From the IMG/VR virus record IMGVR_UViG_3300035703_002708: DNA of 64,000 nt. One strand, 5' to 3'. The first letter of the stretch is position 1, and each line of letters starts with the position of its first letter. This DNA is from a virus (Duplodnaviria; Caudoviricetes). Shown here one piece after another: positions 11,335 to 64,000 of the stretch. The notes under the pieces are model-generated. The model did no database searches. It saw nothing but the letters and a program-made list of their open reading frames with translations, and was not told where the DNA came from. The position numbers were made by a program, and so were the translations under genes.

Positions 11335-12078
11335 TTACCGAACCATATTTTGAATCAGTTCGAAATATACCTTTTTGAACTTTTTCATACTAGCCCTTAT
11401 CTCTTTTGTTGACAAGTTGGTCATATCTCGTAAGGATAGTAATATAATATTTTTATTAAATTTGTTATTATCGGTACTTATGAAGATAGTATCATAGTTT
11501 ATAAAAACTTCATAAAGAGATTCTCCCAATTTCCTTTCGTTTTCAGATAAATCGTTGTCTTGTAGTATTTCTACTAAGTTTTCTAAAAATTTATCTATTA
11601 TTTGTTCACTAGATAAAGAGTCATCTTCCATATAGTAAATCAAATCTTCTCTGTCCGTATTTTCTAAATCGCTAGAAATATCTTCGTACGATATTTTCCT
11701 ATTCATGTCTTTTTGGTCTTTTATAATTTGACCCATTAAATAGTTTTTACATATGGTACCGAAATATGAATAAGCCTTCTTTTCTTTAGAAGGCTTAAAC
11801 TTTTCTATCTTAGTCATCAGAAATGAATGGGTATCAGCATGAATCTCCTCGAAATCCATGTCCTTTCTGTACAACTTATATCGTCTTATAATAGACGATA
11901 TCATTTTATCCAGCGGTTTTCTAAGATTTTGATTGTAGATTTTGTTTCTTTCCTCAAATGTGTTTGCGGATAAAAATAATCTTACAGCAAATTCTTCTTT
12001 TTCGTCGAAATAGTTGTCGGATTTTGGTTTTCTACCTTTCTTTTTTGAATCATCAATGGTTTGTCCACTTAATGTCAT
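11335..12078 (-). CDS. RNA polymerase sigma-factor-like protein (sigma70 region 2; phage late sigma candidate)
   Basis: Region-2-like KIEKFKPSKEKKAYSYFGTICKNYL; C-terminal HTH-like MTNLSTKEIRASMKKFK. ATG 12078 overlaps the upstream TGA. Confidence 0.65.
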   Translation of the reverse strand: MTLSGQTIDDSKKKGRKPKSDNYFDEKEEFAVRLFLSANTFEERNKIYNQNLRKPLDKMISSIIRRYKLYRKDMDFEEIHADTHSFLMTKIEKFKPSKEKKAYSYFGTICKNYLMGQIIKDQKDMNRKISYEDISSDLENTDREDLIYYMEDDSLSSEQIIDKFLENLVEILQDNDLSENERKLGESLYEVFINYDTIFISTDNNKFNKNIILLSLRDMTNLSTKEIRASMKKFKKVYFELIQNMVR

Positions 12079-12884
12079 CAAACGGTTTGCGGTTCATATT
12101 TTATCTGTCTGTCAATACTGAAAAAATATTCTTTTTTTGCAGACTCAATCCAAAATTTGATTTCATCAGGAACCATAACATCTGAACCATTTTTGTAATT
12201 CCAAAAAATTGAACCTTCTCGTAGATTTACGTGCTTGTATCCAATTTTAGGAATCGTCATAATTTTGACTGAATTATGTGTCATTCTTAACATAAATTCA
12301 TAGACAAATGTCAATTTTATTGATGGTTTAAATTTACCGTATTGTTCAAATACTGATTTTTTTATCACCATACCAGACGACTGGAAGTTTTGGTAATTTT
12401 GCAAAGTTTCATTAGTTAGAATACCCATATCAGGTGAGAAGTTTGCGGCAAATGTTGCTTCATTAGTAAATCCCGCAAACACACCTTTATCGTCAATATC
12501 TACAACAATTGGTAGAAATGCTTCAACATCTTTATATGATTTAACATATAGGTTTACATTTTTAAACCAAATTGACGAGTATTCATCATCGAATTCAAAA
12601 AATGAAACCCATTCTGAAGTTGAGTTATCAACACCATAATTAATTTGTGAACAAAAATTAGGCTCGTCCTTCCAAACTAATTTTTTAACCGTAAGGTCAC
12701 CAAAGTCATATGAGTCAAGAGCACTTGTAAGTGTATCTTCATCAGTATGTACAATGATTAGTTCGTTAAATGGAATTTTTTGAGTTTTCAGAGACGTAAT
12801 TGCCTTATCAAAAAGTTCATCAAAGTCTTTAACCTTAGCAGACTTTATAGGTAATATTACAGATAAATTAAGTTTTTCGCTCAT
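12078..12884 (-). CDS. glycosyltransferase, GT-A fold (GT2-like)
   Basis: LSVILPI, IIVHT, WVSFFEFDD (DxD-like); start placed at ATG 12884. Confidence 0.75.
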   Translation of the reverse strand: MSEKLNLSVILPIKSAKVKDFDELFDKAITSLKTQKIPFNELIIVHTDEDTLTSALDSYDFGDLTVKKLVWKDEPNFCSQINYGVDNSTSEWVSFFEFDDEYSSIWFKNVNLYVKSYKDVEAFLPIVVDIDDKGVFAGFTNEATFAANFSPDMGILTNETLQNYQNFQSSGMVIKKSVFEQYGKFKPSIKLTFVYEFMLRMTHNSVKIMTIPKIGYKHVNLREGSIFWNYKNGSDVMVPDEIKFWIESAKKEYFFSIDRQIKYEPQTV

Positions 12885-12885
12885 A

Positions 12886-13947
12886 TTATTCAATAGTTTG
12901 TAATTTGTTTAGTTGTTCTTGGAATGGTTCCAATCTTGTTTCGATGTATCTTGTAAATAAATCAATTACCTTGGATTCGAACTCATCGACTTTTGTATAT
13001 TTTTCAGCGGTTTTCTCGATGTTTTCATAAAGAGACTCATTGATATTATCTTCTAACCAATTGTGTAAGAAGTCAGATACGAAATCAACAATTTGGTTTT
13101 GTTCTCTAATCCAAACACCATTTTCTTCATTCATCCATTCAGGAAACAAATTTGGTATTTTACCAATGACTGGTACACCAACTTTCATAGATTCTAATGG
13201 GAATGTCCCAAATCCACTTGTTGAGTCAATCCAAACCGATAAAAAACAATCTTTAAGTGCGTTTGCAAATTCTTTTTGTGATAGTCCTCTCATATCTCTA
13301 AAAGTAACCCAACGATACTGAGGGTATTTTAAATAGAAAGTTTTAATCAGGGTCATTGTGTCTCTTTGGTCTCTTGTATGAATCGCAATAATTGGTTTTG
13401 GGGGTAATTCCTGTTTTTGGAAAACATTAGAAATCACAGGTGTTAAAATATCAAAAGAAGTACCTTTCATTACTGAACTTACGTATTGTTTTTGTTCCTC
13501 AGATGTGGTAATACATTTTGTAAACCCATATTGCGCCCATGTTTGACCAGGCTGTAGTGTTTCAACTATGTGGTCGTAAGCTTGACATAATACAATTTTA
13601 GCACAAGGAAGGTTTGTTAATTGCGGCATCACAAATCCATAAAGTTCTGGCACGATGATAAAATCTTCAGGGGATACCTCCAAATTCTGACCTTCAATCG
13701 CTCTATGAGGTAGTTCATCCATGTATTCTTGACCTAACCAATTCGCTACTCCTGTATAATCAGGTTTTTCATGTAGAATAATCGAATTAAATCCTGCTCG
13801 CTTCAGTGTCATGGCCATTTGGTAGGTATGTGCAATACCTGCCTTAGCATTACCTTTGGTGTCTTGTACCATAAAATAAATCCTTACAGATTTGTTTTTA
13901 AGGTTCTCTACTGATTTCTCTAAATTTTTAATTTGTTCGGGTGTCAT
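12886..13947 (-). CDS. glycosyltransferase, GT-B fold (GT4-like)
   Basis: C-terminal SGFGTFPLESMKVGVPVIG corresponds to the E-x7-E GT4 motif region. Confidence 0.7.
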   Translation of the reverse strand: MTPEQIKNLEKSVENLKNKSVRIYFMVQDTKGNAKAGIAHTYQMAMTLKRAGFNSIILHEKPDYTGVANWLGQEYMDELPHRAIEGQNLEVSPEDFIIVPELYGFVMPQLTNLPCAKIVLCQAYDHIVETLQPGQTWAQYGFTKCITTSEEQKQYVSSVMKGTSFDILTPVISNVFQKQELPPKPIIAIHTRDQRDTMTLIKTFYLKYPQYRWVTFRDMRGLSQKEFANALKDCFLSVWIDSTSGFGTFPLESMKVGVPVIGKIPNLFPEWMNEENGVWIREQNQIVDFVSDFLHNWLEDNINESLYENIEKTAEKYTKVDEFESKVIDLFTRYIETRLEPFQEQLNKLQTIE

Positions 13948-13948
13948 A

Positions 13949-14212
13949 TTAATATTTGTTGATTAATTTTTTATTCAATAGTGAGTTAAAAGCAATTTTG
14001 AATGGAATGGTCAATCCTCCGCCACTCTTTAATCCTAATGTTTCGTCTATTTCTTCATCTTCAGTCATAATAACTTCCATCATCATTTTTACAACTTCGT
14101 ATTTTACAACATTAATGTGCATTTCACTACCACCACTTGCCGAAGGGATATTTATATATTTTTCAATTTCGTCGATATCAACGTAATAAGTGTCATTAAA
14201 GATTTTGAACAT
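13949..14212 (-). CDS. hypothetical protein (87 aa)
   Basis: Operon-packed ATG ORF. Confidence 0.7.
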   Translation of the reverse strand: MFKIFNDTYYVDIDEIEKYINIPSASGGSEMHINVVKYEVVKMMMEVIMTEDEEIDETLGLKSGGGLTIPFKIAFNSLLNKKLINKY

Positions 14213-14877
14213 TATGCGTATTGTTTTATAATGTTTTCCAACATAGTTTCAAATTCCTTTATTGAAGAAATTGTGTATGGTGAAGAAACGTGTTTATTGT
14301 ATTTTGTTTCGTATTTAACCACGATTTTGTTCTGTGGATGATTTAATAATAAGTCAGGATTTGCCGTAAGTAAAACATCTACTTCATCCCACATAGATTT
14401 AATTGTTTGGTTAGAATAAAATTTTACCTTTTCTAATAAACAACCAAATTTCGATATGAAAAAAAGTGATGCGGGTTTTGACTTTCCAATCTCATCTGAC
14501 ACAATCAACAAATCATGTTCATCTCTTAATTTTATATATAAATCATTAAGGTCATTAAATGATGTCATTTCGGCTGATGGGGCGTGACCAAAAATTTGCA
14601 TCGGAAATTCTTGGTACATAAAATTATAAAGTTCATCGTTGTTTGGAAATGCAAAATGTTTTGACAAGTCTATTGAATCGACTTCGGACAAGACCTCGTA
14701 TTTAAATGGAGTTTCTACTTTAGATAAAATCTCTTTATATTCCTCGTTATTATCAATCGCTTCGTAGGTCTTGAGTTTTTCGTCGTATTCCTCGTCGATT
14801 AGATATCTCTCGTAAGTTTGTTTAAACTTCTCGATGGTGTCTCTTAAAACACCATTTAATTCAATACCGATTTTCAT
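14212..14877 (-). CDS. HAD-superfamily 5'(3')-deoxyribonucleotidase-like protein with altered motif I
   Basis: MKIGIELNGVLRDT occupies the IDxDGVL.D position. Confidence 0.55.
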   Translation of the reverse strand: MKIGIELNGVLRDTIEKFKQTYERYLIDEEYDEKLKTYEAIDNNEEYKEILSKVETPFKYEVLSEVDSIDLSKHFAFPNNDELYNFMYQEFPMQIFGHAPSAEMTSFNDLNDLYIKLRDEHDLLIVSDEIGKSKPASLFFISKFGCLLEKVKFYSNQTIKSMWDEVDVLLTANPDLLLNHPQNKIVVKYETKYNKHVSSPYTISSIKEFETMLENIIKQYA

Positions 14878-15602
14878 TCTTCGTATCTTTTTAGTAATTT
14901 ACTAATTAATGGATTTCTCACAACATCTTTGTCTGAAAATTCGAATACTCCGACATCGTCAATACTTTTGAATCGTTGAAGTGCGTCCCACAATCCTGAT
15001 TGACGTTTATCTTTGTATCTGTCAGTTTGTTCCAAATCCCCTGATATAAAAAATTTAGAGTTATAACCAATCCTTGTCAATAATAATTTCATTTGATTTG
15101 GTGTTGCGTTTTGTGCCTCCTCAAAAATCAAAATGGTGTTATCGATATTCATACCTCTCATATACGCTAAAGCGAATACTTCGATGATTTCCGCTTCTTT
15201 GAGTTTTTCTCTTGCCTCTTTACCAACAATTTTATTTAGTAGGTAATAAGAAGGGAAAATATAAGGGTCTAATTTTTCCTCTACGTTTCCTGGTAATGAA
15301 CCTAATTTTTCTTCAGCCTCAACTGCAGGACGAACAATTACTAACTTTTCGTATGAATTGGTGGGGTCCAAAAGTAAATCAACCGCTGCCTTCATCGAAA
15401 TATAACTTTTACCGACACCAGCAGGACCTGAACACAATACTATTTGATTATTAGTTAATAATTCATAGTAAGTCTTTTGACTTTCGGTAAGAAATTTATT
15501 TCTGATTTTTTTTGTCACTAAAGAATTGATATAATCTTTTTTTGACATTTTTCTTTCGACAGGTTCAGCTTTCGGAGTATTCTGTTTTTTTCTTTGCGTC
15601 AT
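14874..15602 (-). CDS. phoH: PhoH-like ATPase
   Basis: GPAGVGKS Walker A; IVRPAVEAEEKLGSLPG; AYMRG...IFEEAQN; LLTRIG...SGDLEQTD; VVRNPLI. Confidence 0.95.
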   Translation of the reverse strand: MTQRKKQNTPKAEPVERKMSKKDYINSLVTKKIRNKFLTESQKTYYELLTNNQIVLCSGPAGVGKSYISMKAAVDLLLDPTNSYEKLVIVRPAVEAEEKLGSLPGNVEEKLDPYIFPSYYLLNKIVGKEAREKLKEAEIIEVFALAYMRGMNIDNTILIFEEAQNATPNQMKLLLTRIGYNSKFFISGDLEQTDRYKDKRQSGLWDALQRFKSIDDVGVFEFSDKDVVRNPLISKLLKRYEE

Positions 15603-16632
15603 TTTTATTTACATTATTGTTAATCCATTGATAAGTTTTTTCTAATCCATAAATCAATGGTTGTGAGACCGACCAACCTATTTTTTCTTTATAAAGTTTG
15701 TTATCAGAATTTCTACCTTTAACACCAACAGGGCATTTAAATCCATATTTTTGTTTGAAGTCTTCACCTGATATATTATATATTTTAATGTTTTTTCTTG
15801 AAATATCAATGGCCATTTGAGCCAGTTGGTTTATAGTAACCATTTCCTCAGAACCGATATTTACAGGTCCTTTGAAATCACTATCCATTAATCTTAATAC
15901 CGCCTCAACACACTCGTCGATGTATAAAAATGACCTAGTTTGTTGACCATCTCCCCAAACTTCAATCTCACTACCTTCAGGTGTTTCAGAAACTTTTCTA
16001 CACATAGCAGCGGGAGCTTTTTCCTTACCTCCATTCCAAGTACCGTAAGGTCCAAAAATGTTATGGAATCTTGCGACTCTAACATCTAAACCATAGTTTC
16101 TATTAAAAGCAAAATACAATCTTTCACTGAAAAGTTTTTCCCAACCATACTCTGAATCGGGATTTGCCGGGTAAGCGGACGATTCTTCACAATTTGGGTT
16201 ATTAGGGTCTAGTTGATTATGTTCGGGATACATACAAGCCGAAGATGAGTAAAATATTTTTTTAACATTCATCATCGTTGCGTAGTACGAAACATTCAAA
16301 TTAATTAATGCCGAATTGTGCATTACATCGGCATCATTTTCTCCTGTGAAAATATATCCCGCACCTCCCATATCGGCAGCCAATTGATAGACCTCGTCAA
16401 AACTATTTTCTTTATCGTCTAACGACTTTTGATTCGGACCGAACATTATTTTACTTACAAGTTGTGCGTCTCTCAAATCTCCTTGTATAAATTCAGTACA
16501 AAATTCGTGTTGGTCGAAATATTCATGTTGTTTTATGTCTACAACTCTTACGAAATTACCTTCAGTAAATAATCTTTTCGCGAGATGACCACCTATGAAT
16601 CCGCCACCTCCTAATATTAATATATTTTTCAT
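15565..16632 (-). CDS. NAD-dependent epimerase, GDP-mannose 3,5-epimerase-like
   Basis: GGGGFIG, YQLAADMGGAGYI, SSSACMYP, DSEYGWEKLFSERLY, EKAPAAMCRK, GVKGRNSDN. Confidence 0.88.
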   Translation of the reverse strand: MKNILILGGGGFIGGHLAKRLFTEGNFVRVVDIKQHEYFDQHEFCTEFIQGDLRDAQLVSKIMFGPNQKSLDDKENSFDEVYQLAADMGGAGYIFTGENDADVMHNSALINLNVSYYATMMNVKKIFYSSSACMYPEHNQLDPNNPNCEESSAYPANPDSEYGWEKLFSERLYFAFNRNYGLDVRVARFHNIFGPYGTWNGGKEKAPAAMCRKVSETPEGSEIEVWGDGQQTRSFLYIDECVEAVLRLMDSDFKGPVNIGSEEMVTINQLAQMAIDISRKNIKIYNISGEDFKQKYGFKCPVGVKGRNSDNKLYKEKIGWSVSQPLIYGLEKTYQWINNNVNKNDAKKKTEYSES

Positions 16633-17516
16633 TTTTTAAAAAAGTTTTTTATAAATTTTTCTAAATCTCCTGTTGGTCTCCAATTAGACATGGATTTTAA
16701 CTTTTCAGAATTGGATAAAGTTTTTTTAGGCTCTACGACACTTCCTATATATTCAACTTCAGAATCAATTAAATTGCATATCTCATTTATTTTGTAATCG
16801 TTACCGTTACCGACGTTGAATATTTCGAAATCAGATTCCAATGACAAACATTCAACATTTGCGTTTACTACATCATCTACGTGTGTAAAATCTCGAGATT
16901 GTTCGCCATCATTTGTTATTGGTATTGGATTTCCTATCAAGAAATTTTTTTTAAAAATAGACAGTGCTGTAATATATTGACCATTCAGAGGCATACTATC
17001 ACCATAGACGTTAAAATACCTAAGACAAAAAGTTTTAATGTTATATAAATCCGAATAAATTTTACAATATTGTTCACCAATAAGTTTTTGTAACCCGTAT
17101 GGTGATTTGGGATTTAAATTTTTTGAAGTCTCGACAAAAGGTAGTTCGTCATCACCGTAAACAGATGAAGACGAGCTAAAAATAAACCTTTCAACACCAT
17201 ATTTTCTACACATATCGAGTAGATTAACAGTACCTGTTACATTCACTTCGTTGAATTTTACAGGGTCTTTAATTGATGGTTGTACTCTAGCTAAAGCCGC
17301 TAAGTGAAATACACAATCAACTTTGCCAATCTGTTCAAAAATTTTTGTCAATTCATCATAATTAACGATATCTGTTTCGAACAAAACATCGCCAAAATTA
17401 GGTTGTGAACTATTTGATAGATTATCTATCACATAAACAAAATGACCTAATGATTTTAATTTTTTTACTAAATTGTGACCAATAAATCCACATCCACCTG
17501 TTACTAATATCTTCAT
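16629..17516 (-). CDS. NAD-dependent nucleotide-sugar epimerase/dehydratase (extended SDR)
   Basis: TGGCGFIG, HLAA, SSSSVYG, SPYGLQK (YxxxK), LRYFNVYG, RDFTHVDD. Confidence 0.9.
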   Translation of the reverse strand: MKILVTGGCGFIGHNLVKKLKSLGHFVYVIDNLSNSSQPNFGDVLFETDIVNYDELTKIFEQIGKVDCVFHLAALARVQPSIKDPVKFNEVNVTGTVNLLDMCRKYGVERFIFSSSSSVYGDDELPFVETSKNLNPKSPYGLQKLIGEQYCKIYSDLYNIKTFCLRYFNVYGDSMPLNGQYITALSIFKKNFLIGNPIPITNDGEQSRDFTHVDDVVNANVECLSLESDFEIFNVGNGNDYKINEICNLIDSEVEYIGSVVEPKKTLSNSEKLKSMSNWRPTGDLEKFIKNFFKK

Positions 17517-17520
17517 ATTT

Positions 17521-18213
17521 TTAATTATAAATCATTTTTTGTAAAATTCCGCAGTTGTATTCGATTAAGTCATTAGACGAATCAACTTTTTTAAGATTGT
17601 ATTTTATGGCAATATTTGTTAATATACTTTGGTCGTGTCTATGTTCTATAAAATTTTTATGATTTGGGTGACCACAAATGTTCGGGAGGTCTGTGACTAT
17701 GTTTTCATTTCTACAATAATCCAACCATTCCTCAATTAACTTTAGATTTGATACCGTTTTCCTAAATCCTAAAACCCCCGCTTCTAATTGTACCTGATTA
17801 TGGAAATTTTCAGAGTCGCAATTCATTAAAACGAAACAATCTTTTTTTGTCCAAACATCGTGTGATTCATGTCTCAAATTATTGAATAATAAATAATCGT
17901 TGTTTTCGAAGTGATTCTCAATGAATGAGAAAAATCTATCTTTTGGTAGGTCAGTAGAATCCAAATAAATAACTATATCGTTTTCATTTGACTCTAACAA
18001 TGATTTTAAAATTAAATAAGGTTTCCATAACCAATAACCATATCCTCTTCCATATTTGAATATTTTATGGTTTTCAGTTAAGAACTCATTTGATATGTCT
18101 TCCTTATTATAGATTTCGATATTTTTTATGCCTGAGTTACTTAAGATTTCGACCAAATGTGTTCTTGGTTTAACATAATTGTCTGTGGCAAAAGTTATAA
18201 ATTTAAAATTCAT
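17521..18213 (-). CDS. putative glycosyltransferase-like protein
   Basis: GYWLWKPYLI, IYLDS and EHRHDQSIL motifs in a glycan operon. Confidence 0.55.
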   Translation of the reverse strand: MNFKFITFATDNYVKPRTHLVEILSNSGIKNIEIYNKEDISNEFLTENHKIFKYGRGYGYWLWKPYLILKSLLESNENDIVIYLDSTDLPKDRFFSFIENHFENNDYLLFNNLRHESHDVWTKKDCFVLMNCDSENFHNQVQLEAGVLGFRKTVSNLKLIEEWLDYCRNENIVTDLPNICGHPNHKNFIEHRHDQSILTNIAIKYNLKKVDSSNDLIEYNCGILQKMIYN

Positions 18214-18220
18214 AGTTTCA

Positions 18221-18931
18221 TTAACTTCTTAAGAAATTTATTCCACCGTGTTCTGTTTTCCCCAACTGAAATATTTTTTTTTGGTATGGTAGGTCGAATG
18301 ATGGGGGGTAAACATATCCAGAATCTAATTTTTTCGGTGGATTTTTTATAAAATATTTGTTCATGTGGGATTCATCATGCCATATCGCAATAATGTTGTT
18401 GTCTAAATCTTTTTGTATTTCATTCTGTAGAGTCTCCGTCATTTCTAAAAAACTTTCGTTTTTCCCTCCAAAAAAGCATCCTTGGAAATAGTTTTCTCCT
18501 TCTTCTCCATACCCTACGTATGCTGTCGAATCTGGTCTTCTTTCGAGAGGAAATGCCTGACTTTTTATTATGTTATGAAATCCAGGATGAATCGCTCCAA
18601 CTAATCCTGATTTTTCATCAAATGGAAGTATTTCTTTTCCAATATTTTCTAAAAAAAACATATTTACATTACTGAAAAAAATAAAATCATGGTCAAGTTT
18701 ATCTTTAATCGAGTTTATTAAATGAAATCTCATTAAAGTATCAAATGGCCACCCCATTTTTTTCTGATATATTACGTTCACGTTTTTTCTTGGTCTCAAA
18801 TTGTTCGAATCAGTGAAAATAAAAAATTCCAATTGTTCATCACAAAAAAAATGTTTGATACAACTGGATATTAGTCCATCCACAAATAATTCGTATTTAC
18901 CAGTGGCAATAAAAATATAACAAATTTTCAT
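18221..18931 (-). CDS. GT6 (ABO blood-group-type) glycosyltransferase
   Basis: FIATGKY, GWPFDTLMRF, NVN in place of DxD as in bacterial GT6, and WHDESHMNKY. Confidence 0.9.
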   Translation of the reverse strand: MKICYIFIATGKYELFVDGLISSCIKHFFCDEQLEFFIFTDSNNLRPRKNVNVIYQKKMGWPFDTLMRFHLINSIKDKLDHDFIFFSNVNMFFLENIGKEILPFDEKSGLVGAIHPGFHNIIKSQAFPLERRPDSTAYVGYGEEGENYFQGCFFGGKNESFLEMTETLQNEIQKDLDNNIIAIWHDESHMNKYFIKNPPKKLDSGYVYPPSFDLPYQKKIFQLGKTEHGGINFLRS

Positions 18932-18934
18932 ATA

Positions 18935-19531
18935 TTAATTTCTATAAAAAACAACATCATAATTCTCGAAAGAGTGTAAATTTTTTGAGGTACATTCGAA
19001 TCCTAATTTTTTCATCCTTTCTTTAATCAAATTGGTTTCTCTTTTCAATGATGAATCTAAAAATTCATGAAACTCGACGGTAATTTGCCCAATTTTATCA
19101 AAAACAAAATCTGGTGTGTTACTTAACAAATCATATTCTGCCCCTTCAATATCTATTTTGATTATATCCACAAAATCCAAATTATTTTCATAAAAAATTT
19201 CCTCTAATGTTATTGACTTGATTACGTGAGTCACATGTGTGAATTTATTAAACATCACAGAACCATTGTATGGTGAATTGGGGTCTTCATAGAAGTTATA
19301 ATCCATATTTGGTTTACTGGATATTACTCTGTTATAGATTTTGAGTTTGTCTGAATGGGGTAAAGATTTGAAATTTTCGGGACCGGCTTCAACCATAATA
19401 ATTTTATCCACATTATACATTTCATTTAAGTTTAACGAAAACTCACCTTTACAAGCTCCTAAATCAATAATATTTATTTTTTTTCTGAATAAATCATCAA
19501 AAAAAGTGTGTTCCATTATTCTTCTTTCCAT
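18935..19531 (-). CDS. FkbM-family methyltransferase
   Basis: IIDLGACKG, MVEAG, IIKIDIEGAEY, QITVEFH. Confidence 0.85.
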   Translation of the reverse strand: MERRIMEHTFFDDLFRKKINIIDLGACKGEFSLNLNEMYNVDKIIMVEAGPENFKSLPHSDKLKIYNRVISSKPNMDYNFYEDPNSPYNGSVMFNKFTHVTHVIKSITLEEIFYENNLDFVDIIKIDIEGAEYDLLSNTPDFVFDKIGQITVEFHEFLDSSLKRETNLIKERMKKLGFECTSKNLHSFENYDVVFYRN

Positions 19532-20151
19532 CAGTATAAATTTTTTGGATTATTTGTTTTATGAATATCACTCATTTGTGTACTGAAATCAGTTTTCATA
19601 AATTGATAAAATTCTTCATATGTCATAAATTCTTTATCCTCAGTTTTTTTAAGGACACACCAATTTAAGTTACCGTTACTATCAACGTGTTGGTCAAATT
19701 CCAAAATTTGATATCCATAATCCTCCATTTTTTTAAAAAAATCATAATCAGTATAATACCTACAATGATTCTTCCAACTTCCGTACTCAGGTATTTCATG
19801 AATCATAATACCATCCACCATTAACCAGTTGTGTATGTTATTCCAACAATTGTACTGCCCTTCTTCATACTCTACATGTTCTGAAGTTCCGAAATTAGTT
19901 ATGATATCCGCATAGAATTTTTTCGGTTGATAGATTGATAAATCACATAATGTGACCTCTGGATGATTGTGTAAGTCGATACTTAAATATTGTTTGAATC
20001 TATTTTTAAAGAAATTTCTTACGAGTTGTTGGTTATATTCCCCGCCAGAAAAGTTTTGTATCCCTAATTCGAGCAGTGTTTTATTATTTAAATTTTCTAA
20101 TCCTGAAAAAATTTTGTTCAATGAATCTAGTGCTATCGTTGTTACTCCCAT
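19531..20151 (-). CDS. SAM-dependent methyltransferase-like protein
   Basis: LLELGIQN, SIDL and DIITNFGTSEHVE class I MTase pattern. Confidence 0.65.
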   Translation of the reverse strand: MGVTTIALDSLNKIFSGLENLNNKTLLELGIQNFSGGEYNQQLVRNFFKNRFKQYLSIDLHNHPEVTLCDLSIYQPKKFYADIITNFGTSEHVEYEEGQYNCWNNIHNWLMVDGIMIHEIPEYGSWKNHCRYYTDYDFFKKMEDYGYQILEFDQHVDSNGNLNWCVLKKTEDKEFMTYEEFYQFMKTDFSTQMSDIHKTNNPKNLY

Positions 20152-20161
20152 TTTTAAAATT

Positions 20162-20938: not shown

Positions 20939-20942
20939 TTTT

Positions 20943-22546: not shown

Positions 22547-22547
22547 T

Positions 22548-23120: not shown

Positions 23121-23124
23121 AATT

Positions 23125-24459: not shown

Positions 24460-24462
24460 ATC

Positions 24463-29554: not shown

Positions 29555-29569
29555 ATAAAATAGATTTGT

Positions 29570-56545: not shown

Positions 56546-56558
56546 AAATTAAAACTTT

Positions 56559-58742
56559 ATGCCATTTTCCATAGATTTATGTCTTACTAATACAGGAAAC
56601 ACGGTATTGGGTCCAACCTTTTTAGTTTTTTCTGATACGAATCCTAACGTACCTTTCACAACAATAAATTTATCAGATATTGTTCAGACTGAATGTCCTT
56701 ATGTTTTGAGTGGTGTGCCTGATAATGCAACATCTATAAGGTTATTAAATTTACCAACAGGGTGTTGTATTGAAATTCCGATAACCGGAAATTTGGATTT
56801 ATGTATAATGTGTGATTTAGGATTCAACGTTTATTCGGCAAATACCGTCAGTGTAATTACCGCAGGTAATTTGACTGGTAGTTGTGACGATAATATTACA
56901 GACTATGTCGTTAATTGGTATGGACCTGATAGTAGTACCAACATTCAGTTCACAAGTGGAAAAGGAAATACTTTTACTTATGATTGGATACATCCGTTAA
57001 CAGGAAACTCATCGGTTTTTGCACCAGCCGGCGTCTATACCCCAAAAATAGAATCCATAATACTAAATGGAGAACTTCTCCAAGAAGATTATGGAGTTTT
57101 ATCAAATTGTTTTTCTGCGGTTACTGTTGAAGCATTCAACTGTTCGAATGGAAATAATACCAATCCACCCTCACTTGCACTTACGGCTTATTCACATGTA
57201 ATTGAGTTTAGTCAACAATCACAAGGAAATGTACCACCAAATTTATCGGCGATATTCGAGTTATCTGCAAACACAAATTTCTTGGCCTTTGCTTTTAAGG
57301 GGGCAAGTGTACCAGATTCACTAAAAATTTCTTTTTCAGGTGCTAGCTACTCTACACCATTAGTTATGGAGTATATCACGGTTGGTGATAACCTGACGAC
57401 ATCAAATCTAAACCCAAATTCATTTCCAAAAAGTGCTGACACCCTATTCTTTTTTTCTAAGGTTCTTAATTTACAAGATACTGTAACGGTATTACCTGGC
57501 GATTATTTGATAATCGAGGTAGAACCAAATCCGACAAATCCAAATACTGAATGGACATTGTATTTAAAATGTTTAGAAACTTTCAATTGTGTCAAATGTA
57601 TAGACACAAACACACCACACAAAATATTACAAAGTTCCATAACAGGTATTACTGGCAGTTGCGGTCAGTTACAAATTCAATTTGTTTTGACGGGATGTTC
57701 AAACAGTCAAAATAATTCAGAGGATGTGTTCAAATACTTTTTGAATGATGGATTAACCCAATCCCCACTTGCAAACAATGGGATAACTGTTGGGTCTCAA
57801 TATACAACATTTAATTTATTTTATAGTGCGCTTACATGTAGTTTTAATCAAGCGCCAGGTTTCCCTTATCAAATTTCATGTTATATCTCAGGTTCCGACA
57901 ATATAAATTTTAGAACTTATAGACCAAACGTTAATACTAGAATTCTTGAATTTAAATTTGAAGGACTTTCGGACTTCAATGCTTACCTTTCCAACTTTTT
58001 AGATGCTATGCAGTATAGTGGTTCGTCAGACCCAACAAACATAACTTACTATAGTAGATTATTTCTAAGTGTACCGGCGCCTAGTGGTGGTACACTTTGT
58101 GGTGACAATACCACACGACTTGATTTTACATTACACCCACCTACGTTAGATTACGCAACAGGAACCACTATTGAATTTCCATATAATTATACTTTTTCAA
58201 TTACGTCAACAACCATATCAAACGGTGCCTCATATAATATTTGTGACCAAAATTGTTTGAGTTTTTTAGATGGTACAGTAAATACGGTAAATGCTAGTGT
58301 TACAGGTTCTAGTCTCGATATAACAGGGACAACGACAGTCTCGTCAAGATACCAATATCCATTTTATAATATTTGGAGATTTACAAGTAGCACAACTAAT
58401 CAAACGTCTACATTTTATAATTTCTCAATAAGGTTTCCGACATATTCAAATGCAACCTATGTGGCGTCAGGAACGCCATTACAAAACATTTCAACAATGT
58501 CCGCCACAACCTGTGATTTTTCATCATCCATGTATCAAGACATCTTTGCCGGGGTTACCGAATGGTATCAATATGTTGGTTCTTATTTGCTGCAAAGAAC
58601 AAATCCGAATAATCCTAATGATTTTAGAATCATGGCTTCGGTTATAACTAATGGCCAACCAAGTTTTTTATATGATGTTTTGGCTTACGGAATTTCAGGA
58701 GGCACCGTTTATGCTTCTAACCCAACCTACATTCAATCTTAG
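56559..58742 (+). CDS. Cys-containing beta-rich putative structural protein (paralogue of 54185..56545)
   Basis: Collinear motifs with the preceding gene over most of its length. Confidence 0.75.
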   Translation: MPFSIDLCLTNTGNTVLGPTFLVFSDTNPNVPFTTINLSDIVQTECPYVLSGVPDNATSIRLLNLPTGCCIEIPITGNLDLCIMCDLGFNVYSANTVSVITAGNLTGSCDDNITDYVVNWYGPDSSTNIQFTSGKGNTFTYDWIHPLTGNSSVFAPAGVYTPKIESIILNGELLQEDYGVLSNCFSAVTVEAFNCSNGNNTNPPSLALTAYSHVIEFSQQSQGNVPPNLSAIFELSANTNFLAFAFKGASVPDSLKISFSGASYSTPLVMEYITVGDNLTTSNLNPNSFPKSADTLFFFSKVLNLQDTVTVLPGDYLIIEVEPNPTNPNTEWTLYLKCLETFNCVKCIDTNTPHKILQSSITGITGSCGQLQIQFVLTGCSNSQNNSEDVFKYFLNDGLTQSPLANNGITVGSQYTTFNLFYSALTCSFNQAPGFPYQISCYISGSDNINFRTYRPNVNTRILEFKFEGLSDFNAYLSNFLDAMQYSGSSDPTNITYYSRLFLSVPAPSGGTLCGDNTTRLDFTLHPPTLDYATGTTIEFPYNYTFSITSTTISNGASYNICDQNCLSFLDGTVNTVNASVTGSSLDITGTTTVSSRYQYPFYNIWRFTSSTTNQTSTFYNFSIRFPTYSNATYVASGTPLQNISTMSATTCDFSSSMYQDIFAGVTEWYQYVGSYLLQRTNPNNPNDFRIMASVITNGQPSFLYDVLAYGISGGTVYASNPTYIQS

Positions 58743-58812: not shown

Positions 58813-60063
58813 ATGAAAATATTTATTCAAATTGCCTCTTACAGAGACCCCGAATTAGAAAAAACAGTTAAATCCGCAATTGAGAATGCAAAAAAACCGA
58901 AAAATTTAGTTTTCGGAATTGCTCGTCAATATCATCCTGATGACAAGTTCGACACTTTGGACGAATACAGAAAGGACAAAAGATTTAGAATTTTGGACAT
59001 TCCATATTTGGAATCACAAGGAACTTGTTGGGCAAGAAACCAAATCCAACAATTATATAAAGGTGAAGAATACACCTTACAAATTGATTCCCACATGAGA
59101 TTTGCACCAAATTGGGATGAAGAAATGATTGGTATGGTTAAGCAACTTCAGAAAAAAGGGCACAAAAAACCTTTACTGACAGGATACGTATCATCATTTA
59201 ATCCCGATAATGACCCACAAGAAAGAATTCAAGAACCTTGGAGAATGGTTTTTGATAGGTTTATACCTGAAGGGGCGGTTTTTTTCTTACCTGAAACAAT
59301 TCCTGGTTGGCAAACCCTTACTGAACCTATCACCGCAAGATTTTATTCCGCACACTTTGGTTTTTCACTTGGAAGTTTTGCCGTTGACGTACAGCATGAC
59401 CCCGATTATTACTTTCACGGTGAAGAAATCTCAATCGCGGCAAGAGCATATACTCACGGATATGATTTGTTCCACCCACACAAAGTATTGATTTGGCATG
59501 AATACACAAGAAAAGGAAGAACAAAACAGTGGGACGACGATACAGACTGGGTTACTAAAAACAACAGATGTCATTTAAAAAACAGGAAACTTTTTTCTAT
59601 GGACGGCGAAGTATATAATCCAGAAGAATTTGGTATCTATGGTTTCGGAACTGAACGTAGTTTAAGAGATTATGAAAAATATTCGGGTCTTCTTTTCGAA
59701 AGAAGGGCCATCCAACAATATACAATAGATAAAAACTATCCACCAAATCCATATAATTTTGATAACGAAGAAGATTGGAAAAATAGTTTCGCATCAATAT
59801 TCAAACATTGTATAGATATCGGTTATCATCAGGTACCTGAAACAGATTATGAGTTTTGGGTTGTTGCTTTCCATAATGAATCGGATGAAACAATATACAG
59901 AAAAGATGCCGACGCAGACGAAATTAGACGAATGAAGAACGACCCTGATGGTTACTGTAAAGTTTGGAGGGAATTCCAAACATCACATAAACCTAAGTAT
60001 TGGGTTGTTTGGCCATACTCAACAACCAAAGGTTGGTGTGAAAGAATAACAGGAACTTTATAA
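58813..60063 (+). CDS. GT60-like polypeptide/hydroxyproline alpha-GlcNAc transferase homologue with extra C-terminal domain
   Basis: IFIQIASYRDPEL, QGTCWAR, YKGEEYTLQIDSHMRF..NWD, FHGEEI...RAYTHGYDLFHP...WHEY. Confidence 0.85.
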   Translation: MKIFIQIASYRDPELEKTVKSAIENAKKPKNLVFGIARQYHPDDKFDTLDEYRKDKRFRILDIPYLESQGTCWARNQIQQLYKGEEYTLQIDSHMRFAPNWDEEMIGMVKQLQKKGHKKPLLTGYVSSFNPDNDPQERIQEPWRMVFDRFIPEGAVFFLPETIPGWQTLTEPITARFYSAHFGFSLGSFAVDVQHDPDYYFHGEEISIAARAYTHGYDLFHPHKVLIWHEYTRKGRTKQWDDDTDWVTKNNRCHLKNRKLFSMDGEVYNPEEFGIYGFGTERSLRDYEKYSGLLFERRAIQQYTIDKNYPPNPYNFDNEEDWKNSFASIFKHCIDIGYHQVPETDYEFWVVAFHNESDETIYRKDADADEIRRMKNDPDGYCKVWREFQTSHKPKYWVVWPYSTTKGWCERITGTL

Positions 60064-60065
60064 GT

Positions 60066-60905
60066 ATGATTGAGATACATAATGAATGGGACCCATTTGA
60101 CAATGGAGAGTGGTTCGCAACGGAAAGAAAAAATTTCGGACATAAGTTGTTTGCATATATTATCCCACGAATAATGTCGGAATTATTGAATTACAATTTA
60201 ATTGTTCCAGAAAATTCATACATTGGAAAAATAAACAAAGAAAATGGTAATGAATTTGAGAAAGTTTTATTTCCATATACTAGCATAACCGACAGATTGT
60301 CTTTCACTGACAATGTTGTGGAGCTCAATGACGAATCACTTAATGGTAGTGATATCGAGACATTTGTTAAAAATATAAATGGAAATAAAATATATTCTAA
60401 ATGTCACTGTTCTAATTACAACTACATAAAACCTCACAAGAGTTTGGTTAGAGAAATCCTAAAAGATTTGATAGTACCGAAATCTCACGAAAATGACATA
60501 TTACTTTTTTTGAGGAAAAGTAGAAGAGCACATACATATCGTCTACCTGATAGTTACTATTTGAATATTTTAGAAAACGAAAGTTTTGACAAGATGTACT
60601 TATCGGTGGATGATATTGACAGACACTACAACCTATATCAAAATTTAAAAAAGTATGACCCAATAATACTTGAGGGTGATATACTCGAAAATTTTAAAAA
60701 GGCCACATCATTCAACAAAATGATTTGTTCTCAGGGACAATTTGCGTTTTGGGCAGCTTGGCTGTCTGATGCGGACAAAATATATTGGCCAATAACAAAT
60801 GCAGGGCCTAATGCAGGACCCGAAGTACATCGTCACCACTTAAATTTAAAAGTCGACGACGAAGAAAGGTATACATTTATTAACATAGAAAACATTTATC
60901 ATTGA
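60066..60905 (+). CDS. GT11-like (alpha-1,2-fucosyltransferase-related) protein, divergent
   Basis: NFGHKLFAY (cf. GLGNQMFQY), LPDSYY, and ICSQGQFAFWAAWLS (cf. SNSTFSWWAAYL); the HxR motif is replaced by FLRK. Confidence 0.6.
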   Translation: MIEIHNEWDPFDNGEWFATERKNFGHKLFAYIIPRIMSELLNYNLIVPENSYIGKINKENGNEFEKVLFPYTSITDRLSFTDNVVELNDESLNGSDIETFVKNINGNKIYSKCHCSNYNYIKPHKSLVREILKDLIVPKSHENDILLFLRKSRRAHTYRLPDSYYLNILENESFDKMYLSVDDIDRHYNLYQNLKKYDPIILEGDILENFKKATSFNKMICSQGQFAFWAAWLSDADKIYWPITNAGPNAGPEVHRHHLNLKVDDEERYTFINIENIYH

Positions 60906-61870
60906 TGAAAAAAAAAATTAAAATAACGAGAGGAAATTTTTGTAACAATTGTAGTTATTACTTGGTTAATTATTTAGTAAATTTACTCAAAAAAAATTAT
61001 GATGTAGAAATTTCTAACGACAACCCCGACATAGTTTTTTTCTCCAATCAATTCGTGAGTACAAGTAATTTGGACGAATACACCGGTGAAAATGCTAAAA
61101 CAGAATACGATTTTCCTAACGCAAAGAAAGTTTTCATAAGCGGTGAGGCGGTGGCCAATTACGATTATTATACGACAAAAAGTGACCAACACTTTACAAT
61201 TGGTAAACCTGGTGACTTGAATAACGAAAGGCATTTGAATATTTCATATTTTTCTATTGTTTCGGCATGGCAATTATGGGATGAATGTAAAATGTTCGAT
61301 AGTCCATTTGGTTGGTTAACGCAAAAGAAAAACTTGGGAGAAATTTTAAAAAATAAAAAATATTTTGCGGCAATAGTACAACAATCGACAAATGACTATA
61401 GAAGAGGTTTGTTTGATAACCTTTGTACCATAGAAAAGGTTAGGTCTTGTGGAGGTTTTGAAACTAATATACCTGATTGTTCTTTAGCGAACAGAGGTAG
61501 AACAGAAGCTGAAGCTTACGGCAACAAAGTAAAGTTTCTCTCAGAACATTTTTTTTCCTTACAGGTGCAATCAACGACTTTAGATTGGTTCACCCAAGAA
61601 AAAATAATCCAAGCATATGCCGCAAACACAATACCAATTTTTTGGGGTAACCCACAGATTTTAGATGATGGATTTAATCCTGAATCATTTATTAATTGTC
61701 ATAATTATTCTTCAATAGAAGAGGTTACAGAAAAAGTTAGAGAAATCTATTCTGATAAAAATAAGGTCTATAAAATGTTATTGGAACCTGTCTTTGTTGA
61801 TAACAAGTTACCGAAAGAGTTTGATGAAGATGTTTTGATTGAGTTTTTAGATAAAATTGTTAAACATTAA
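60905..61870 (+). CDS. GT10-like (alpha-1,3-fucosyltransferase family) protein
   Basis: PDIVF, KKVFISGE, and FSLQVQST..WFTQEKIIQAYAANTIPIFWG (GT10 motif), FINCHNY. Confidence 0.8.
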   Translation: MKKKIKITRGNFCNNCSYYLVNYLVNLLKKNYDVEISNDNPDIVFFSNQFVSTSNLDEYTGENAKTEYDFPNAKKVFISGEAVANYDYYTTKSDQHFTIGKPGDLNNERHLNISYFSIVSAWQLWDECKMFDSPFGWLTQKKNLGEILKNKKYFAAIVQQSTNDYRRGLFDNLCTIEKVRSCGGFETNIPDCSLANRGRTEAEAYGNKVKFLSEHFFSLQVQSTTLDWFTQEKIIQAYAANTIPIFWGNPQILDDGFNPESFINCHNYSSIEEVTEKVREIYSDKNKVYKMLLEPVFVDNKLPKEFDEDVLIEFLDKIVKH

Positions 61871-61875
61871 ATATT

Positions 61876-63312
61876 ATGGAGAATTACAAAAACGTTTCCG
61901 CAGAAAACATTTTGAAAAATTTGAGAGACAGAATAAATCAAGAAAATATAACTTTTTTACAGATAGGTGCAAACGACGGTTATACAAATGACATAGCTAG
62001 TCTAATTTTAAAACCATCAGATAAAGGAGTTTTCGTGGAACCCATAAAAGAAAGTTTCGAAAAGTTAATCTCGAACAAAAAAAACTTCTCGAACTCAAAG
62101 TTCGCTAACTTGGCAATATTACCAGATGAACTGCAAGATTACAACGAGATGAATTTGTTATCCGATTGCCCCTCTAATTTAGGTGCATCATTCAGTTTAT
62201 TTAATCGAGGTAGAATAATCAAAACAGAAAAAGTGGATGTGTCAACACCATTGGAATTTCTATACAGTTATAGAATAAACGATTTGGATTTTTTATTTTG
62301 TAACGCTTCGACATTGGACCATTTAATTGTTTTGGACACCGTGAAACGAATACAACCAAAAGTTTTATTCTTCAACACTTGTTATTGGTGTAACAATGAT
62401 TATGAGTTGGAATTAACAGATACTGTAAAGATAACCATTCCATCAAGAAAAAAAATGAAGGAATTTTTAAATAATTTAAATTATGAGGTTATCGATTTAT
62501 GGGAGAATTCGGAAAACAAAAGAGAAGACATATTGGCATTTAAAAAAGAATTGAATGGGGATTTCGTCGAGATAATAGAACCTAAAGTAATCGAAAAATT
62601 AGAACCAAAACAAGTTAGTATTAATCACAATTTAGAAAAGGTAATTTCATTCACACTTTTCGGTAACAACTTAAAATACTATGTTGGTGCGGAAAAAAAT
62701 ATTGAAATTAATAAAAAACTTCTACCTGATTGGACAAACGTAATATACTACCACAAAGACAGTATTTTACCAGGTTATGTAGAAAAATTGACAAACTTGG
62801 GGGCAAAACTAATCGATGTTAGTTCAATTATTATATCGGGAAAAGAAAGCATCCAATTCCAATATTTTTGGAGATTTTTCAGTTTTTTCGAAGAAGGGAT
62901 TTCTATTGTTAGAGATTTAGATAGTAGATTTTCAGAGAGAGAAGTTAAATACATAAACGAATGGTTGAAATCAAGTAAGAATTACTTTATCATACGAGAC
63001 CATCCTTGGCATTCACAAGTACCTAGTGGATTGTTCGGTATCAAAAATAAAGATGAAGAATTCAAAACACATTTCGAAGACTTTATAAAAAATTCAGAAA
63101 TCAGATGGGGAAGCGACCAAGATATACTATTCCAATTCATGGAAAGAAAAAACAAAAATGAAGTTTTTTATTGTGGATTTGATGATAATGAAAACTATAT
63201 TCCAAGAGACAATAAAAATTTCTTTATAGGTATGCAAATAGACGAAAATGAACAACCACTAAACCCAAGTGCGACTGTTGCATTGGAATTTCTAGAAAGT
63301 ATTAATTTATAA
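61876..63312 (+). CDS. fusion of a FkbM-like methyltransferase domain and a putative glycosyltransferase-like domain
   Basis: FLQIGANDG, FVEPI in the N-half; VISFTLFG..KYYVGA, WRFF, IVRDLDSR, IIRDHPWH, GSDQDIL in the C-half. Confidence 0.7.
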   Translation: MENYKNVSAENILKNLRDRINQENITFLQIGANDGYTNDIASLILKPSDKGVFVEPIKESFEKLISNKKNFSNSKFANLAILPDELQDYNEMNLLSDCPSNLGASFSLFNRGRIIKTEKVDVSTPLEFLYSYRINDLDFLFCNASTLDHLIVLDTVKRIQPKVLFFNTCYWCNNDYELELTDTVKITIPSRKKMKEFLNNLNYEVIDLWENSENKREDILAFKKELNGDFVEIIEPKVIEKLEPKQVSINHNLEKVISFTLFGNNLKYYVGAEKNIEINKKLLPDWTNVIYYHKDSILPGYVEKLTNLGAKLIDVSSIIISGKESIQFQYFWRFFSFFEEGISIVRDLDSRFSEREVKYINEWLKSSKNYFIIRDHPWHSQVPSGLFGIKNKDEEFKTHFEDFIKNSEIRWGSDQDILFQFMERKNKNEVFYCGFDDNENYIPRDNKNFFIGMQIDENEQPLNPSATVALEFLESINL

Positions 63313-63314
63313 TA

Positions 63315-64000
63315 ATGGCTTATTCTTATTGTTTCTGTACAGTTGCAGTCGGTCAACCCTACCTTGATTCTGCTTTGACTTTTGCTAAAGTGCTAAATGA
63401 AAAGTCAAAAGGACATCATATGATTATAGTCACTGATGAAACAGTGGAAGAAAAGATAGACAATACCACCATCACCCTATTACCCAACGACAAAAAAAAA
63501 TTTATAGGACCTTGGTTCAATTGGATGTTGAAATACTATCCAATTAAAGTGGCCAAAGATTTGGGTTTCGATTTCATCGTTTTTTTGGACGCTGATTGGA
63601 GACTAACATCATTTTATGACGAAAATGGATTGAGAAACGTTTTCAAATTTATGGTTGAGTCCGATGTCGACATATGTTTTGAAAGACCATACAGGATAGG
63701 TAGTGCGAAAAAAGATGGGCGACATTGTATTTTTTCACATAAAGTCGAATTTTATAATCTATTGGAAACTGAAGAGTACGATGACGGACACGCATGTAAT
63801 GAACAATTCTTGATTTTAAAAAAATCCGAAAAGTTGAACTTGTTCGTATCTAAGTTTGAAGAACTCCATGATAAAAGTTCCGAACACAATATTTGGCCAT
63901 TTTGTGAAGGATTAGAAATTGGAATGTCAATGTCATTCGCAAAAATGAATATGAATTGGGGTGGATGGGAACCACATTTGAGAAACATGTTTGAATTTAC
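63315..64000 (+). CDS. putative GT-A-type glycosyltransferase, truncated by window end (absent from the ORF track)
   Basis: ATG 63315 gives MAYSYCFCTVAVGQPYLDSA...FIVFLDADW..., open to base 64000, with a DxD motif. Confidence 0.65.
   Translation, partial: MAYSYCFCTVAVGQPYLDSALTFAKVLNEKSKGHHMIIVTDETVEEKIDNTTITLLPNDKKKFIGPWFNWMLKYYPIKVAKDLGFDFIVFLDADWRLTSFYDENGLRNVFKFMVESDVDICFERPYRIGSAKKDGRHCIFSHKVEFYNLLETEEYDDGHACNEQFLILKKSEKLNLFVSKFEELHDKSSEHNIWPFCEGLEIGMSMSFAKMNMNWGGWEPHLRNMFEF

Follow-up and report, generated by a model that had tools for sequence, protein, structure and literature searches.

We analysed a 64,000-nt stretch of DNA (the window) that is part of a freshwater jumbo phage whose host is probably a member of the Bacteroidota. 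Freshwater metagenomes from at least 12 studies contain near-identical DNA, and no near-identical record was found among deposited phages. The right-hand part of the window carries the following plus-strand genes:

32276–37264, plus strand: giant protein of 1662 aa, with an N-domain (residues 1–631), a (Thr-x)n stalk (632–1266) and a C-domain (1267–1638)
37291–41217, plus strand: giant protein of 1308 aa, with Cys-rich globular modules alternating with Thr/Pro tracts
41567–54139, plus strand: giant protein of 4190 aa, with Cys modules, DUF5122, a YVTN-like region and a Thr-rich core
54185–56545, plus strand: 786-aa protein, Cys-rich and not Thr-rich, with weak leads
56559–58742, plus strand: 727-aa protein, paralogue of the 786-aa protein
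58813–60063, plus strand: GT60-family glycosyltransferase (PF11397), candidate polypeptide alpha-GlcNAc-transferase
60066–60905, plus strand: 279-aa protein with weak likeness to GT11 (alpha-1,2-fucosyltransferase; PF01531, E 0.008, 15.9 bits, under the cut-off)
60902–61870, plus strand: GT10-type (FucT-like) glycosyltransferase (PF00852, E 7.6e-8, 32.7 bits, above the cut-off)
61876–63998, plus strand: two co-directional genes, one of 478 aa and one GT-A-like of 228 aa that is open at the window end

From the giants through to the genes after GT60, all are co-directional and separated by gaps of 2–70 bp with a single 350-bp exception; the GT60 gene starts 70 bp after the last gene on the fibre side. 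A scan for sigma-70 promoters and terminators gave nothing above background. Short independent contigs from four freshwater runs tile the giant genes with zero to a few mismatches, but none of them bridges the Thr-tract repeats, and the exact tract lengths therefore depend on the original assembly.

The three giants are open reading frames of the lengths given in the initial annotation, within 26 kb given over to giant proteins, and the long Thr stalks ascribed to them are borne out. Together they contain 1,515 Thr residues (394, 199 and 922 in the 1662-, 1308- and 4190-aa proteins respectively), Thr/Pro/Ser-rich tracts make up 40%, 27% and 43% of their lengths, and a DNA pattern encoding T-x-T x8 gives 446 matches compared with 0 in shuffles. 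The description of roughly every second stalk residue as Thr also holds, with Thr being strictly period-2 (lag-2 co-occurrence 2.7–2.9 times and lag-1 co-occurrence 0.26–0.45 times expectation) and reaching 46% in the longest tracts, as in the stalk of the 1662-aa giant. There are 80 (T-x) runs with at least four units, comprising 1,872 residues altogether, and one in three x positions is Pro. The tracts encode Thr with the same codon usage as neighbouring genes, which indicates that they are not a simple DNA repeat. The longest tract of the 1308-aa giant is at residues 1013–1212, and this protein has no match in either Pfam or PHROG. In the 4190-aa giant, small Cys modules accompany two DUF5122 (delta-60) beta-propeller regions and the YVTN-like region, and the Thr-rich core of 1,266 residues (1048–2313) is interrupted 12 times by a CPDCD...GNTYLDG motif. 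A hydropathy scan found neither a signal peptide nor a TM-like segment in any giant, in agreement with the initial annotation as to signal peptides.

The 1662-aa giant combines a conserved N-domain, for which there is a ConA/LamG-like lead, with a variable C-domain. The N-domain is found at 45–65% identity in 21 of 80 related loci, upstream of GT60 every time and often as a separate gene of 584–640 aa. The lead comes from Atlas (lead scores 0.94–0.97) and, weakly, from Laminin_G_3, which is matched by three of 13 N-domain homologues (best E 1.7e-4); an AF2 model built on the 13-sequence alignment reached a pLDDT of only 31, and tblastn with the N-domain gave no match among 50,697 phage records. 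Searches of the giants against Pfam, PHROG and PDB gave nothing except DUF5122 and this weak LamG lead, and their globular domains matched no known phage structural family. Phmmer and profile searches against PDB gave no match for the N-domain, the 786-aa protein or GT60, and PHROGs gave none for flanking proteins of no recognised family. The 786- and 727-aa proteins, initially taken as paralogues in the giant set, are indeed paralogues of each other (34% identity across 360 aa) but have no detectable kinship with the giants and are not Thr-rich.

The giants constitute a hypervariable adhesin-like island flanked by a conserved ConA/LamG-like gene and the conserved GT60 gene. They are only about 40% alignable between close relatives, even where PhoH is 99% identical.

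The gene that comes after those of the fibre side does encode a GT60-family enzyme, as the initial annotation proposed. Its PF11397 match (E 6.4e-67) scores 226.9 bits, the cut-off being 21, and covers profile positions 94–350 of 352, and the protein has a GT-A domain with a D-x-H metal/nucleotide-sugar motif (D92, S93, H94) that is invariant across 25 homologues, followed by a beta-rich C-terminal domain (approximately residues 326–416). The AF2 model has a pLDDT of 88.8; in structure it matches Dictyostelium Gnt1 best (E 4.5e-25, TM 0.65), and the best 25 structural matches in PDB are all mucin-initiating ppGalNAc-transferases. As judged from this model, all of the folds nearest to it belong to polypeptide O-glycosyltransferases. 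The hydropathy scan revealed no TM segment, and we read the enzyme as soluble. GT60 enzymes of protists begin mucin-type O-glycan chains on domains rich in Thr/Ser (PMC8724618), and by analogy the predicted activity is transfer of alpha-GlcNAc from UDP-GlcNAc. No prolyl 4-hydroxylase domain was recognised among window ORFs of at least 150 aa, and a search of four complete GT60-bearing relatives for PF13640 (prolyl hydroxylase), in which the positive controls were detected, found none. The absence from these relatives favours Thr over hydroxyproline as the acceptor.

Of the FucT-like genes reported to follow GT60, the GT10-type gene passes its Pfam cut-off but the GT11-like one does not. Of 80 related loci, 10 have a GT10-type gene downstream of GT60, and 12–13 keep the 478-aa and 228-aa genes there; the 228-aa gene (63315–63998) has a weak TAGT match (E 0.022) that is under the cut-off. 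A further set of glycan genes is located on the opposite strand:

12078–29572, minus strand: glycan cluster, with glycosyltransferases (GTs) and other glycan genes interleaved
12078, minus strand: GT2
12886, minus strand: GT1-like, weak
14874, minus strand: PhoH, interleaved
15565, minus strand: Fcl-like SDR
16629, minus strand: GalE-like SDR
18221, minus strand: GT6
18935, minus strand: FkbM methyltransferase
20162, minus strand: Nucleotid_trans GT
20943, minus strand: GT2
22548, minus strand: FkbM methyltransferase
23125, minus strand: AsnB-type amidotransferase
24463, minus strand: TOD1/MUCI70-like GT
25133, minus strand: two-domain GT2
27005, minus strand: dUTPase, interleaved
27628, minus strand: exonuclease, interleaved
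28292, minus strand: GT1_4-like, weak

This cluster had been described as an operon of about 20 glycan genes. The GTs, epimerases, methyltransferases and amidotransferase are all present, but only about 13 genes are recognisable as such: eight GT genes with nine GT domains (two under Pfam cut-offs), two SDR epimerase/dehydratases, two FkbM methyltransferases and one AsnB-type amidotransferase, mixed with PhoH, dUTPase, exonuclease and genes of no assigned family. No TM-like segment or signal peptide was found by hydropathy scan in the sugar enzymes of the window, GTs included, and no flippase, polymerase or lipid-carrier initiating transferase is Pfam-recognisable among ORFs of at least 150 aa. 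The cluster is possibly linked to the giants, the only tie being one of proximity.

The initial annotation had suggested testing whether GT60 and Thr-stalk genes co-occur, and they do so in most close relatives and among cultured phages but not as a general rule. A Thr/Pro-rich ORF is located within 10 kb upstream of GT60 in 33 of 65 related loci, and is immediately adjacent in 21; among 40 relatives with GT60 identity of at least 71%, 31 have a Thr/Pro-rich gene upstream. Where long GT60-bearing records lack an adjacent Thr/Pro gene, tracts occur elsewhere in four of five. The lineage carrying GT60 is very abundant in freshwater, metagenomes yield more than 7,000 GT60 homologues, and within the lineage GT60 is near-core and tract content varies from 0 to hundreds of matches. 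One 88%-complete GT60 record has no tracts, three partial GT60 records have none under a stricter pattern, and five of seven complete viral genomes with long Thr tracts lack GT60. A strict genome-level rule of GT60 if and only if Thr tracts was therefore rejected, since tracts without GT60 and GT60 without tracts both occur. Among 50,697 cultured-phage records GT60 is present in only four, all XacN1-like jumbo phages; the three GT60-positive phages tested have 122 (XacN1), 64 (Xoo-sp13) and 3 (RAS14) tract matches, compared with 0 in eight GT60-negative jumbo phages (2.23 Mb), although this contrast represents few independent events because the three positives are one lineage. We found no paper in the literature connecting GT60 with phages. 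Taken as a whole, the first reading of the locus is partly supported.

The Xanthomonas jumbo phage XacN1 provides a cultured point of comparison. It encodes a GT60 homologue (ORF334) with 47% identity to that of the window, and the same (T-x)n grammar is present in at least nine of its large proteins, four of which lie beside a tail-sheath gene. XacN1 virions contain at least two periodate-Schiff-positive glycoprotein bands, which its authors ascribed to the two GTs of the phage; they made no connection of the bands to Thr tracts or to GT60, and the glycoproteins are reported as bands without protein names (PMC5852040). One of these two GTs is the GT60 homologue. XacN1 differs from the window phage in having a Pseudomonadota host and only two annotated GTs, and its tracts are shorter (no more than 46 residues) and scattered, whereas those of the window form one island. 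We considered XacN1 ORF325 (3313 aa, near its GT60) as a counterpart of the giants and rejected it, as it is not Thr-rich.

We lean towards the interpretation that the phage uses GT60 to sugar-coat the giants in the host cytoplasm, giving bottle-brush spacers; this is probable because the gene next to them encodes a soluble member of the family that initiates protist mucin-type chains. The giants, lacking signal peptides, would be made in the cytoplasm, where the soluble GT60 would add the first HexNAc (alpha-GlcNAc from UDP-GlcNAc, by family analogy) to Thr residues of the tracts. The transferases co-transcribed with it further downstream (GT10 and others) may then extend and methylate the glycans, possibly together with the minus-strand cluster. 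The glycosylated tracts would form stiff, protease-resistant and hydrated spacers that keep lectin-like and propeller domains off the particle.

An alternative explanation is that the Thr/Pro tracts are plain unglycosylated linkers, flexible or extended, between adhesin-like domains, and that the GTs including GT60 act on acceptors other than these. The occurrence of long tracts without GT60 in five of seven complete viral genomes, the retention of GT60 where relatives have few long tracts or none, and the Pro at one third of x positions, which by itself favours an extended chain, are all consistent with this. We nonetheless consider it rather unlikely, given the Thr/Pro genes that sit directly beside GT60 in 21 of 65 loci and upstream of it in 31 of 40 close relatives, the three-of-three against none-of-eight pattern in cultured jumbo phages, the strict period-2 Thr that is kept at the amino-acid level with ordinary codon usage, and the kinship of the GT60 fold to polypeptide O-glycosyltransferases. 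It is also conceivable that the giants are glycosylated but act off the particle, as decoys, matrix or adhesive released at lysis or left with debris; they have no homology to known virion proteins and belong to a hypervariable accessory island. However, the pairing of a conserved N-domain with a variable distal part is in keeping with the modular build of phage fibres, XacN1 glycoproteins were found in purified virions, and the position of four XacN1 tract proteins beside a tail-sheath gene likewise makes an off-particle role improbable.

Other explanations leave the giants as unrelated neighbours or direct the sugars to DNA. The glycan genes could make or remodel a non-protein glycan such as a host surface polysaccharide, LPS, or a free or virion-bound polysaccharide, and the many GT families together with sugar methyltransferases, epimerases and an amidotransferase do resemble polysaccharide loci; GT clusters of jumbo phages have been interpreted as capsule-modification systems (PMC7824862), and Mimivirus fibrils carry virus-made polysaccharides (PMC8456856). 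Set against this are the protein-directed nature of the GT60 family, the lack of TM-like segments in all of the enzymes, and the lack of any flippase, polymerase or lipid-carrier initiating transferase that Pfam recognises in ORFs of at least 150 aa, and we regard a non-protein glycan as quite unlikely. Glycosylation of phage DNA (hypermodified bases) as a defence against restriction appears highly improbable. DNA is a common target of phage GTs (Pyle 2024, as cited in PMC12619734), PhoH, dUTPase and exonuclease are located within the cluster, and there is the TAGT likeness at 63315–63998, but this match is under the cut-off, the closest folds to GT60 are polypeptide transferases, and at least eight GTs plus sugar methyltransferases far exceed the known needs of DNA glycosylation. 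Only two of four complete GT60-bearing relatives carry a ThyA-family (hydroxymethylase-type) gene, and the TET/JBP search gave no match in any of the four, although control genomes also gave none and absence is thus not demonstrated.

The proposed sugar-coating of the giants by GT60 has both likenesses to and differences from known systems. The protist GT60 enzymes (Dictyostelium Gnt1 and the Golgi pp-alphaGlcNAcT, and the mucin-initiating enzymes of Trypanosoma cruzi) share PF11397, the GT-A fold and D-x-H with the phage protein; Gnt1 is likewise soluble and cytoplasmic, and the mucin enzymes likewise act on Thr/Pro-rich tracts, which in the phage are candidate acceptors. In Dictyostelium, PTVT repeats are glycosylated. 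Unlike these enzymes, the window GT60 is phage-encoded, would work in bacterial cytoplasm, and carries an additional beta-rich domain of about 90 aa at its C-terminus; it appears to stand outside the Skp1 hydroxyproline route (PhyA then Gnt1), as no prolyl hydroxylase partner was found. Animal GT27 ppGalNAc-transferases, which act on PTS domains, also combine dense Thr/Pro tracts with an initiating transferase of related fold, but in the phage neither a secretory pathway nor a ricin-type lectin domain was recognised, and its Thr is strictly period-2 whereas that of animal mucins is clustered. All three giants have the long Pro/Thr/Ser-rich domains by which mucins are recognised; passage through a secretory compartment, a further mucin hallmark, is expected neither for them nor for the GTs, and any glycosylation would be cytoplasmic because giants and GTs lack signal peptides and TM-like segments.

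Among viruses, the mycobacteriophages, which are small actinophages, encode transferases of other GT families that glycosylate the phage's own proteins in the cytoplasm; the substrates there are capsid and tail-tube subunits, modified on short tails at their C-termini (Freeman et al. 2023, as cited in PMC12619734). The window differs in its giant accessory proteins, hundreds of candidate sites and GT60 initiator, and we view the proposed system as a variant of known phage virion glycosylation. Mimivirus and the Megavirinae also have a virus-encoded, host-independent glycosylation toolkit that decorates surface fibrils, but these are eukaryotic viruses, and the fibril proteins are polysaccharide-bearing GMC oxidoreductases rather than Thr-tract proteins (PMC8456856, PMC10117803); no role of GT60 in these fibrils is reported.

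More broadly, and more tentatively, we propose that a GT60-initiated protist-type mucin pathway, under phage control in the bacterial cytoplasm, could build a giant bottle-brush glycocalyx on jumbo-phage particles, as a trait common to this abundant freshwater lineage and XacN1-like phages. Through XacN1, the idea can be put to the test in a phage and host that are already in culture and for which proteomics data exist. If correct, it would provide a polypeptide HexNAc-transferase that is soluble, can be expressed in bacteria and may be useful for glyco-engineering. Tailed phages would then produce genuine mucin-like glycoproteins, each chain carrying hundreds of sites for O-glycans, by means of an enzyme family hitherto studied in protists only, and virus-encoded glycosylation would reach well past the short glycosylated tails of mycobacteriophages. 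This bears on how large phages may cross capsules and biofilms and resist proteases and grazers, and on their immune recognition.

The plus strand between 32276 and the window end carries ten genes arranged head to tail, which encode, in order, three Thr-tract proteins of 1662, 1308 and 4190 aa (the giants), a pair of 786- and 727-aa paralogues, a GT60 glycosyltransferase and four further products, two or three of which are glycosyltransferase (GT)-like. The principal features are:

12078-29572 (-), cluster of glycan genes
32276-37264 (+), 1662-aa giant
37291-41217 (+), 1308-aa giant
41567-54139 (+), 4190-aa giant
58813-60063 (+), GT60 gene
63315-63998 (+), GT-A-like protein, cut off by the window end

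The giants contain 1,515 Thr residues in total, and within the tracts Thr occupies every second position (enriched 2.7-2.9x at lag 2 and depleted to 0.26-0.45x at lag 1). There are 80 such (T-x)n runs, summing to 1,872 residues, with x being Pro (33%), Gln (14%), Ile (11%), Val (10%) or Lys (9%). A DNA-level search pattern for these tracts (T-x-T x8) matches 446 times, against 0 times in shuffles. The gene at 58813-60063 is a clear PF11397/GT60 member. The initial annotation of Thr-tract giants flanked by GT60 and glycan genes is borne out with minor corrections. Because the tracts use the same Thr codons as the remainder of the window, and the DNA repeats are only 73-86% alike, the tracts are maintained at the protein level rather than arising from fresh slippage or an assembly artefact. 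The tracts are separated by Cys-rich modules, by two DUF5122 propellers and a YVTN-like region, and by a CPDCD...GNTYLDG motif that occurs 12 times. The full motif, CPDCD-I/L-S/T-GNTYLDGVTLTPTVT, is an exact 24-residue sequence recurring every 72-134 residues at 45509-48399 (+), in the Thr-rich core of the 4190-aa protein, and may form a small metal- or disulfide-stabilised knot. Profile, PHROG and deposited-phage searches matched the giants to no known structural family.

The AF2 model of the window GT60 is confident (pLDDT 88.8), and residues D92-S93-H94 do not vary among the 25 aligned homologues (42-91% identity). Among reviewed proteins its best structural match is the Dictyostelium Skp1 GlcNAc-transferase Gnt1 (E 4.5e-25), and the remaining matches, like the top 25 in the PDB, are all animal polypeptide GalNAc-transferases; judging from the model, its nearest structural kin all attach the first sugar to a polypeptide. 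In Dictyostelium and T. cruzi, GT60 enzymes carry out the first step of mucin-type O-glycosylation (PMC8724618). The phage enzyme lacks a membrane anchor, its catalytic domain standing at the very start. A hydropathy scan showed neither TM-like segments nor signal peptides in the giants or in the window's sugar enzymes, and no flippase, polymerase or lipid-carrier transferase is Pfam-recognisable among the window ORFs of 150 aa or more. All of this points to a soluble, cytoplasmic acceptor. The acceptor residue is probably Thr and not hydroxyproline, given that no prolyl hydroxylase was found in four complete relatives. One viral record of 311 kb, 93% complete and with long Thr tracts, has GT60 as the N-terminal portion of a fusion protein of 799 aa (G028:C1:13400-16100).

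GT60 homologues number more than 7,000 in metagenomes and 170 in IMG/VR. Among the 65 loci with enough DNA upstream of GT60, a Thr/Pro-rich ORF lies within the preceding 10 kb in 33, and 21 of these have it as the immediate co-directional neighbour of GT60; it is present in 31 of 40 loci with GT60 identity of at least 71%, and in 2 of 25 below 71%. Four of five long GT60 records without an adjacent Thr/Pro-rich gene still have tracts elsewhere. The association is nonetheless no strict rule: GT60 is present in only two of seven complete viral genomes picked for long Thr tracts, and tracts are missing from one GT60 record that is 88% complete and, by a stricter pattern, from three partial ones.

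Of the 50,697 deposited phage records, just four carry GT60, all of them XacN1-like; the GT60-positive cultured phages represent a single lineage. The tract pattern matches 122 times in the Xanthomonas jumbo phage XacN1 (AP018399.1), 64 times in Xoo-sp13 and 3 times in RAS14, and 0 times in eight GT60-negative jumbo phages (2.23 Mb in all). The (T-x)n grammar of the window recurs in at least nine large XacN1 proteins annotated as hypothetical (ORF174, 234, 236, 237, 350, 369, 370, 372 and 384), in tracts of up to 46 residues, and four of the tract proteins adjoin the tail-sheath stabiliser gene. Purified XacN1 virions yield at least two periodate-Schiff-positive bands, which the authors ascribe to the phage's two GTs; the Thr tracts are not discussed (PMC5852040). 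One of these two GTs is the GT60 homologue (ORF334).

The proposed phage-encoded mucin-type glycoprotein system is partly supported: the GT60-Thr-tract link at its heart has genuine comparative and indirect experimental backing. The giants may be virion fibres, and both flanking clusters may be recruited to the system. The minus-strand cluster contains eight GT genes, two SDRs, two FkbM methyltransferases and an AsnB-type amidotransferase, mixed with nucleotide-metabolism genes, and its link to the giants is one of adjacency only. A role of the window's transferases in DNA modification is a weakly supported possibility. The GT-A-like protein at the window end resembles TET-associated DNA glycosyltransferases below threshold (PF20691, E 0.022). 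The ThyA family is present in two of four complete relatives; a TET/JBP profile search of the complete relatives gave no match, although control genomes were silent too, so absence is not implied.

The window has 32% GC and looks like a section of a jumbo phage genome, encoding PhoH, dUTPase and exonuclease, together with weak, sub-threshold matches to sigma-70 region 2 and to a late-sigma PHROG; its relatives in IMG/VR are records of 200-320 kb, of which some have terminal repeats. The dUTPase domain of the 208-aa protein at 27005-27631 (-) starts at residue 75, following roughly 70 aa of N-terminal extension. Freshwater metagenomes from at least 12 studies contain near-identical DNA, and no deposited phage is close at the DNA level. 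A 425-aa protein at 4421-5698 (-) starts with a hydrophobic, signal-like segment and ends in a T9SS C-terminal sorting domain (PF18962, E 2e-11). As a predicted phage-encoded cargo of a host type IX secretion system, it is the principal indication of a Bacteroidota host. Beside the glycan cluster, three large genes at 5763-10960 (-) encode 497-, 522- and 634-aa proteins without Pfam or PHROG matches, which may be structural; the N-terminus of the 522-aa protein is reminiscent of the OB-fold with which baseplate spike/hub proteins begin, and the 634-aa protein has one TM-like segment. At 1444-3401, a membrane-anchored NAGPA-type phosphodiester glycosidase (PF09992) is divergent from a PG_binding_1 protein, and the two may act in lysis or on the cell wall.

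Glycosylation of phage virions has been described before, as has GT60, and we did not find the two combined on giant Thr-tract proteins in the literature searched. Conservation as a gene in its own right is seen for the N-domain of the 1662-aa giant (45-65% identity, common N-terminus, 21 of 80 loci), which directly abuts GT60 in some relatives, and the remaining globular domains of the giants are found again in just one to four loci. In the closest relative, IMGVR_UViG_3300031787_009175, PhoH is 99% and GT60 90% identical, but the giant is only about 40% alignable, which suggests that the giants turn over or swap very fast. With so few loci sharing these domains and so little alignable in the closest relative, the giants constitute a hypervariable island between two conserved genes, as expected of proteins that contact the host or the environment.
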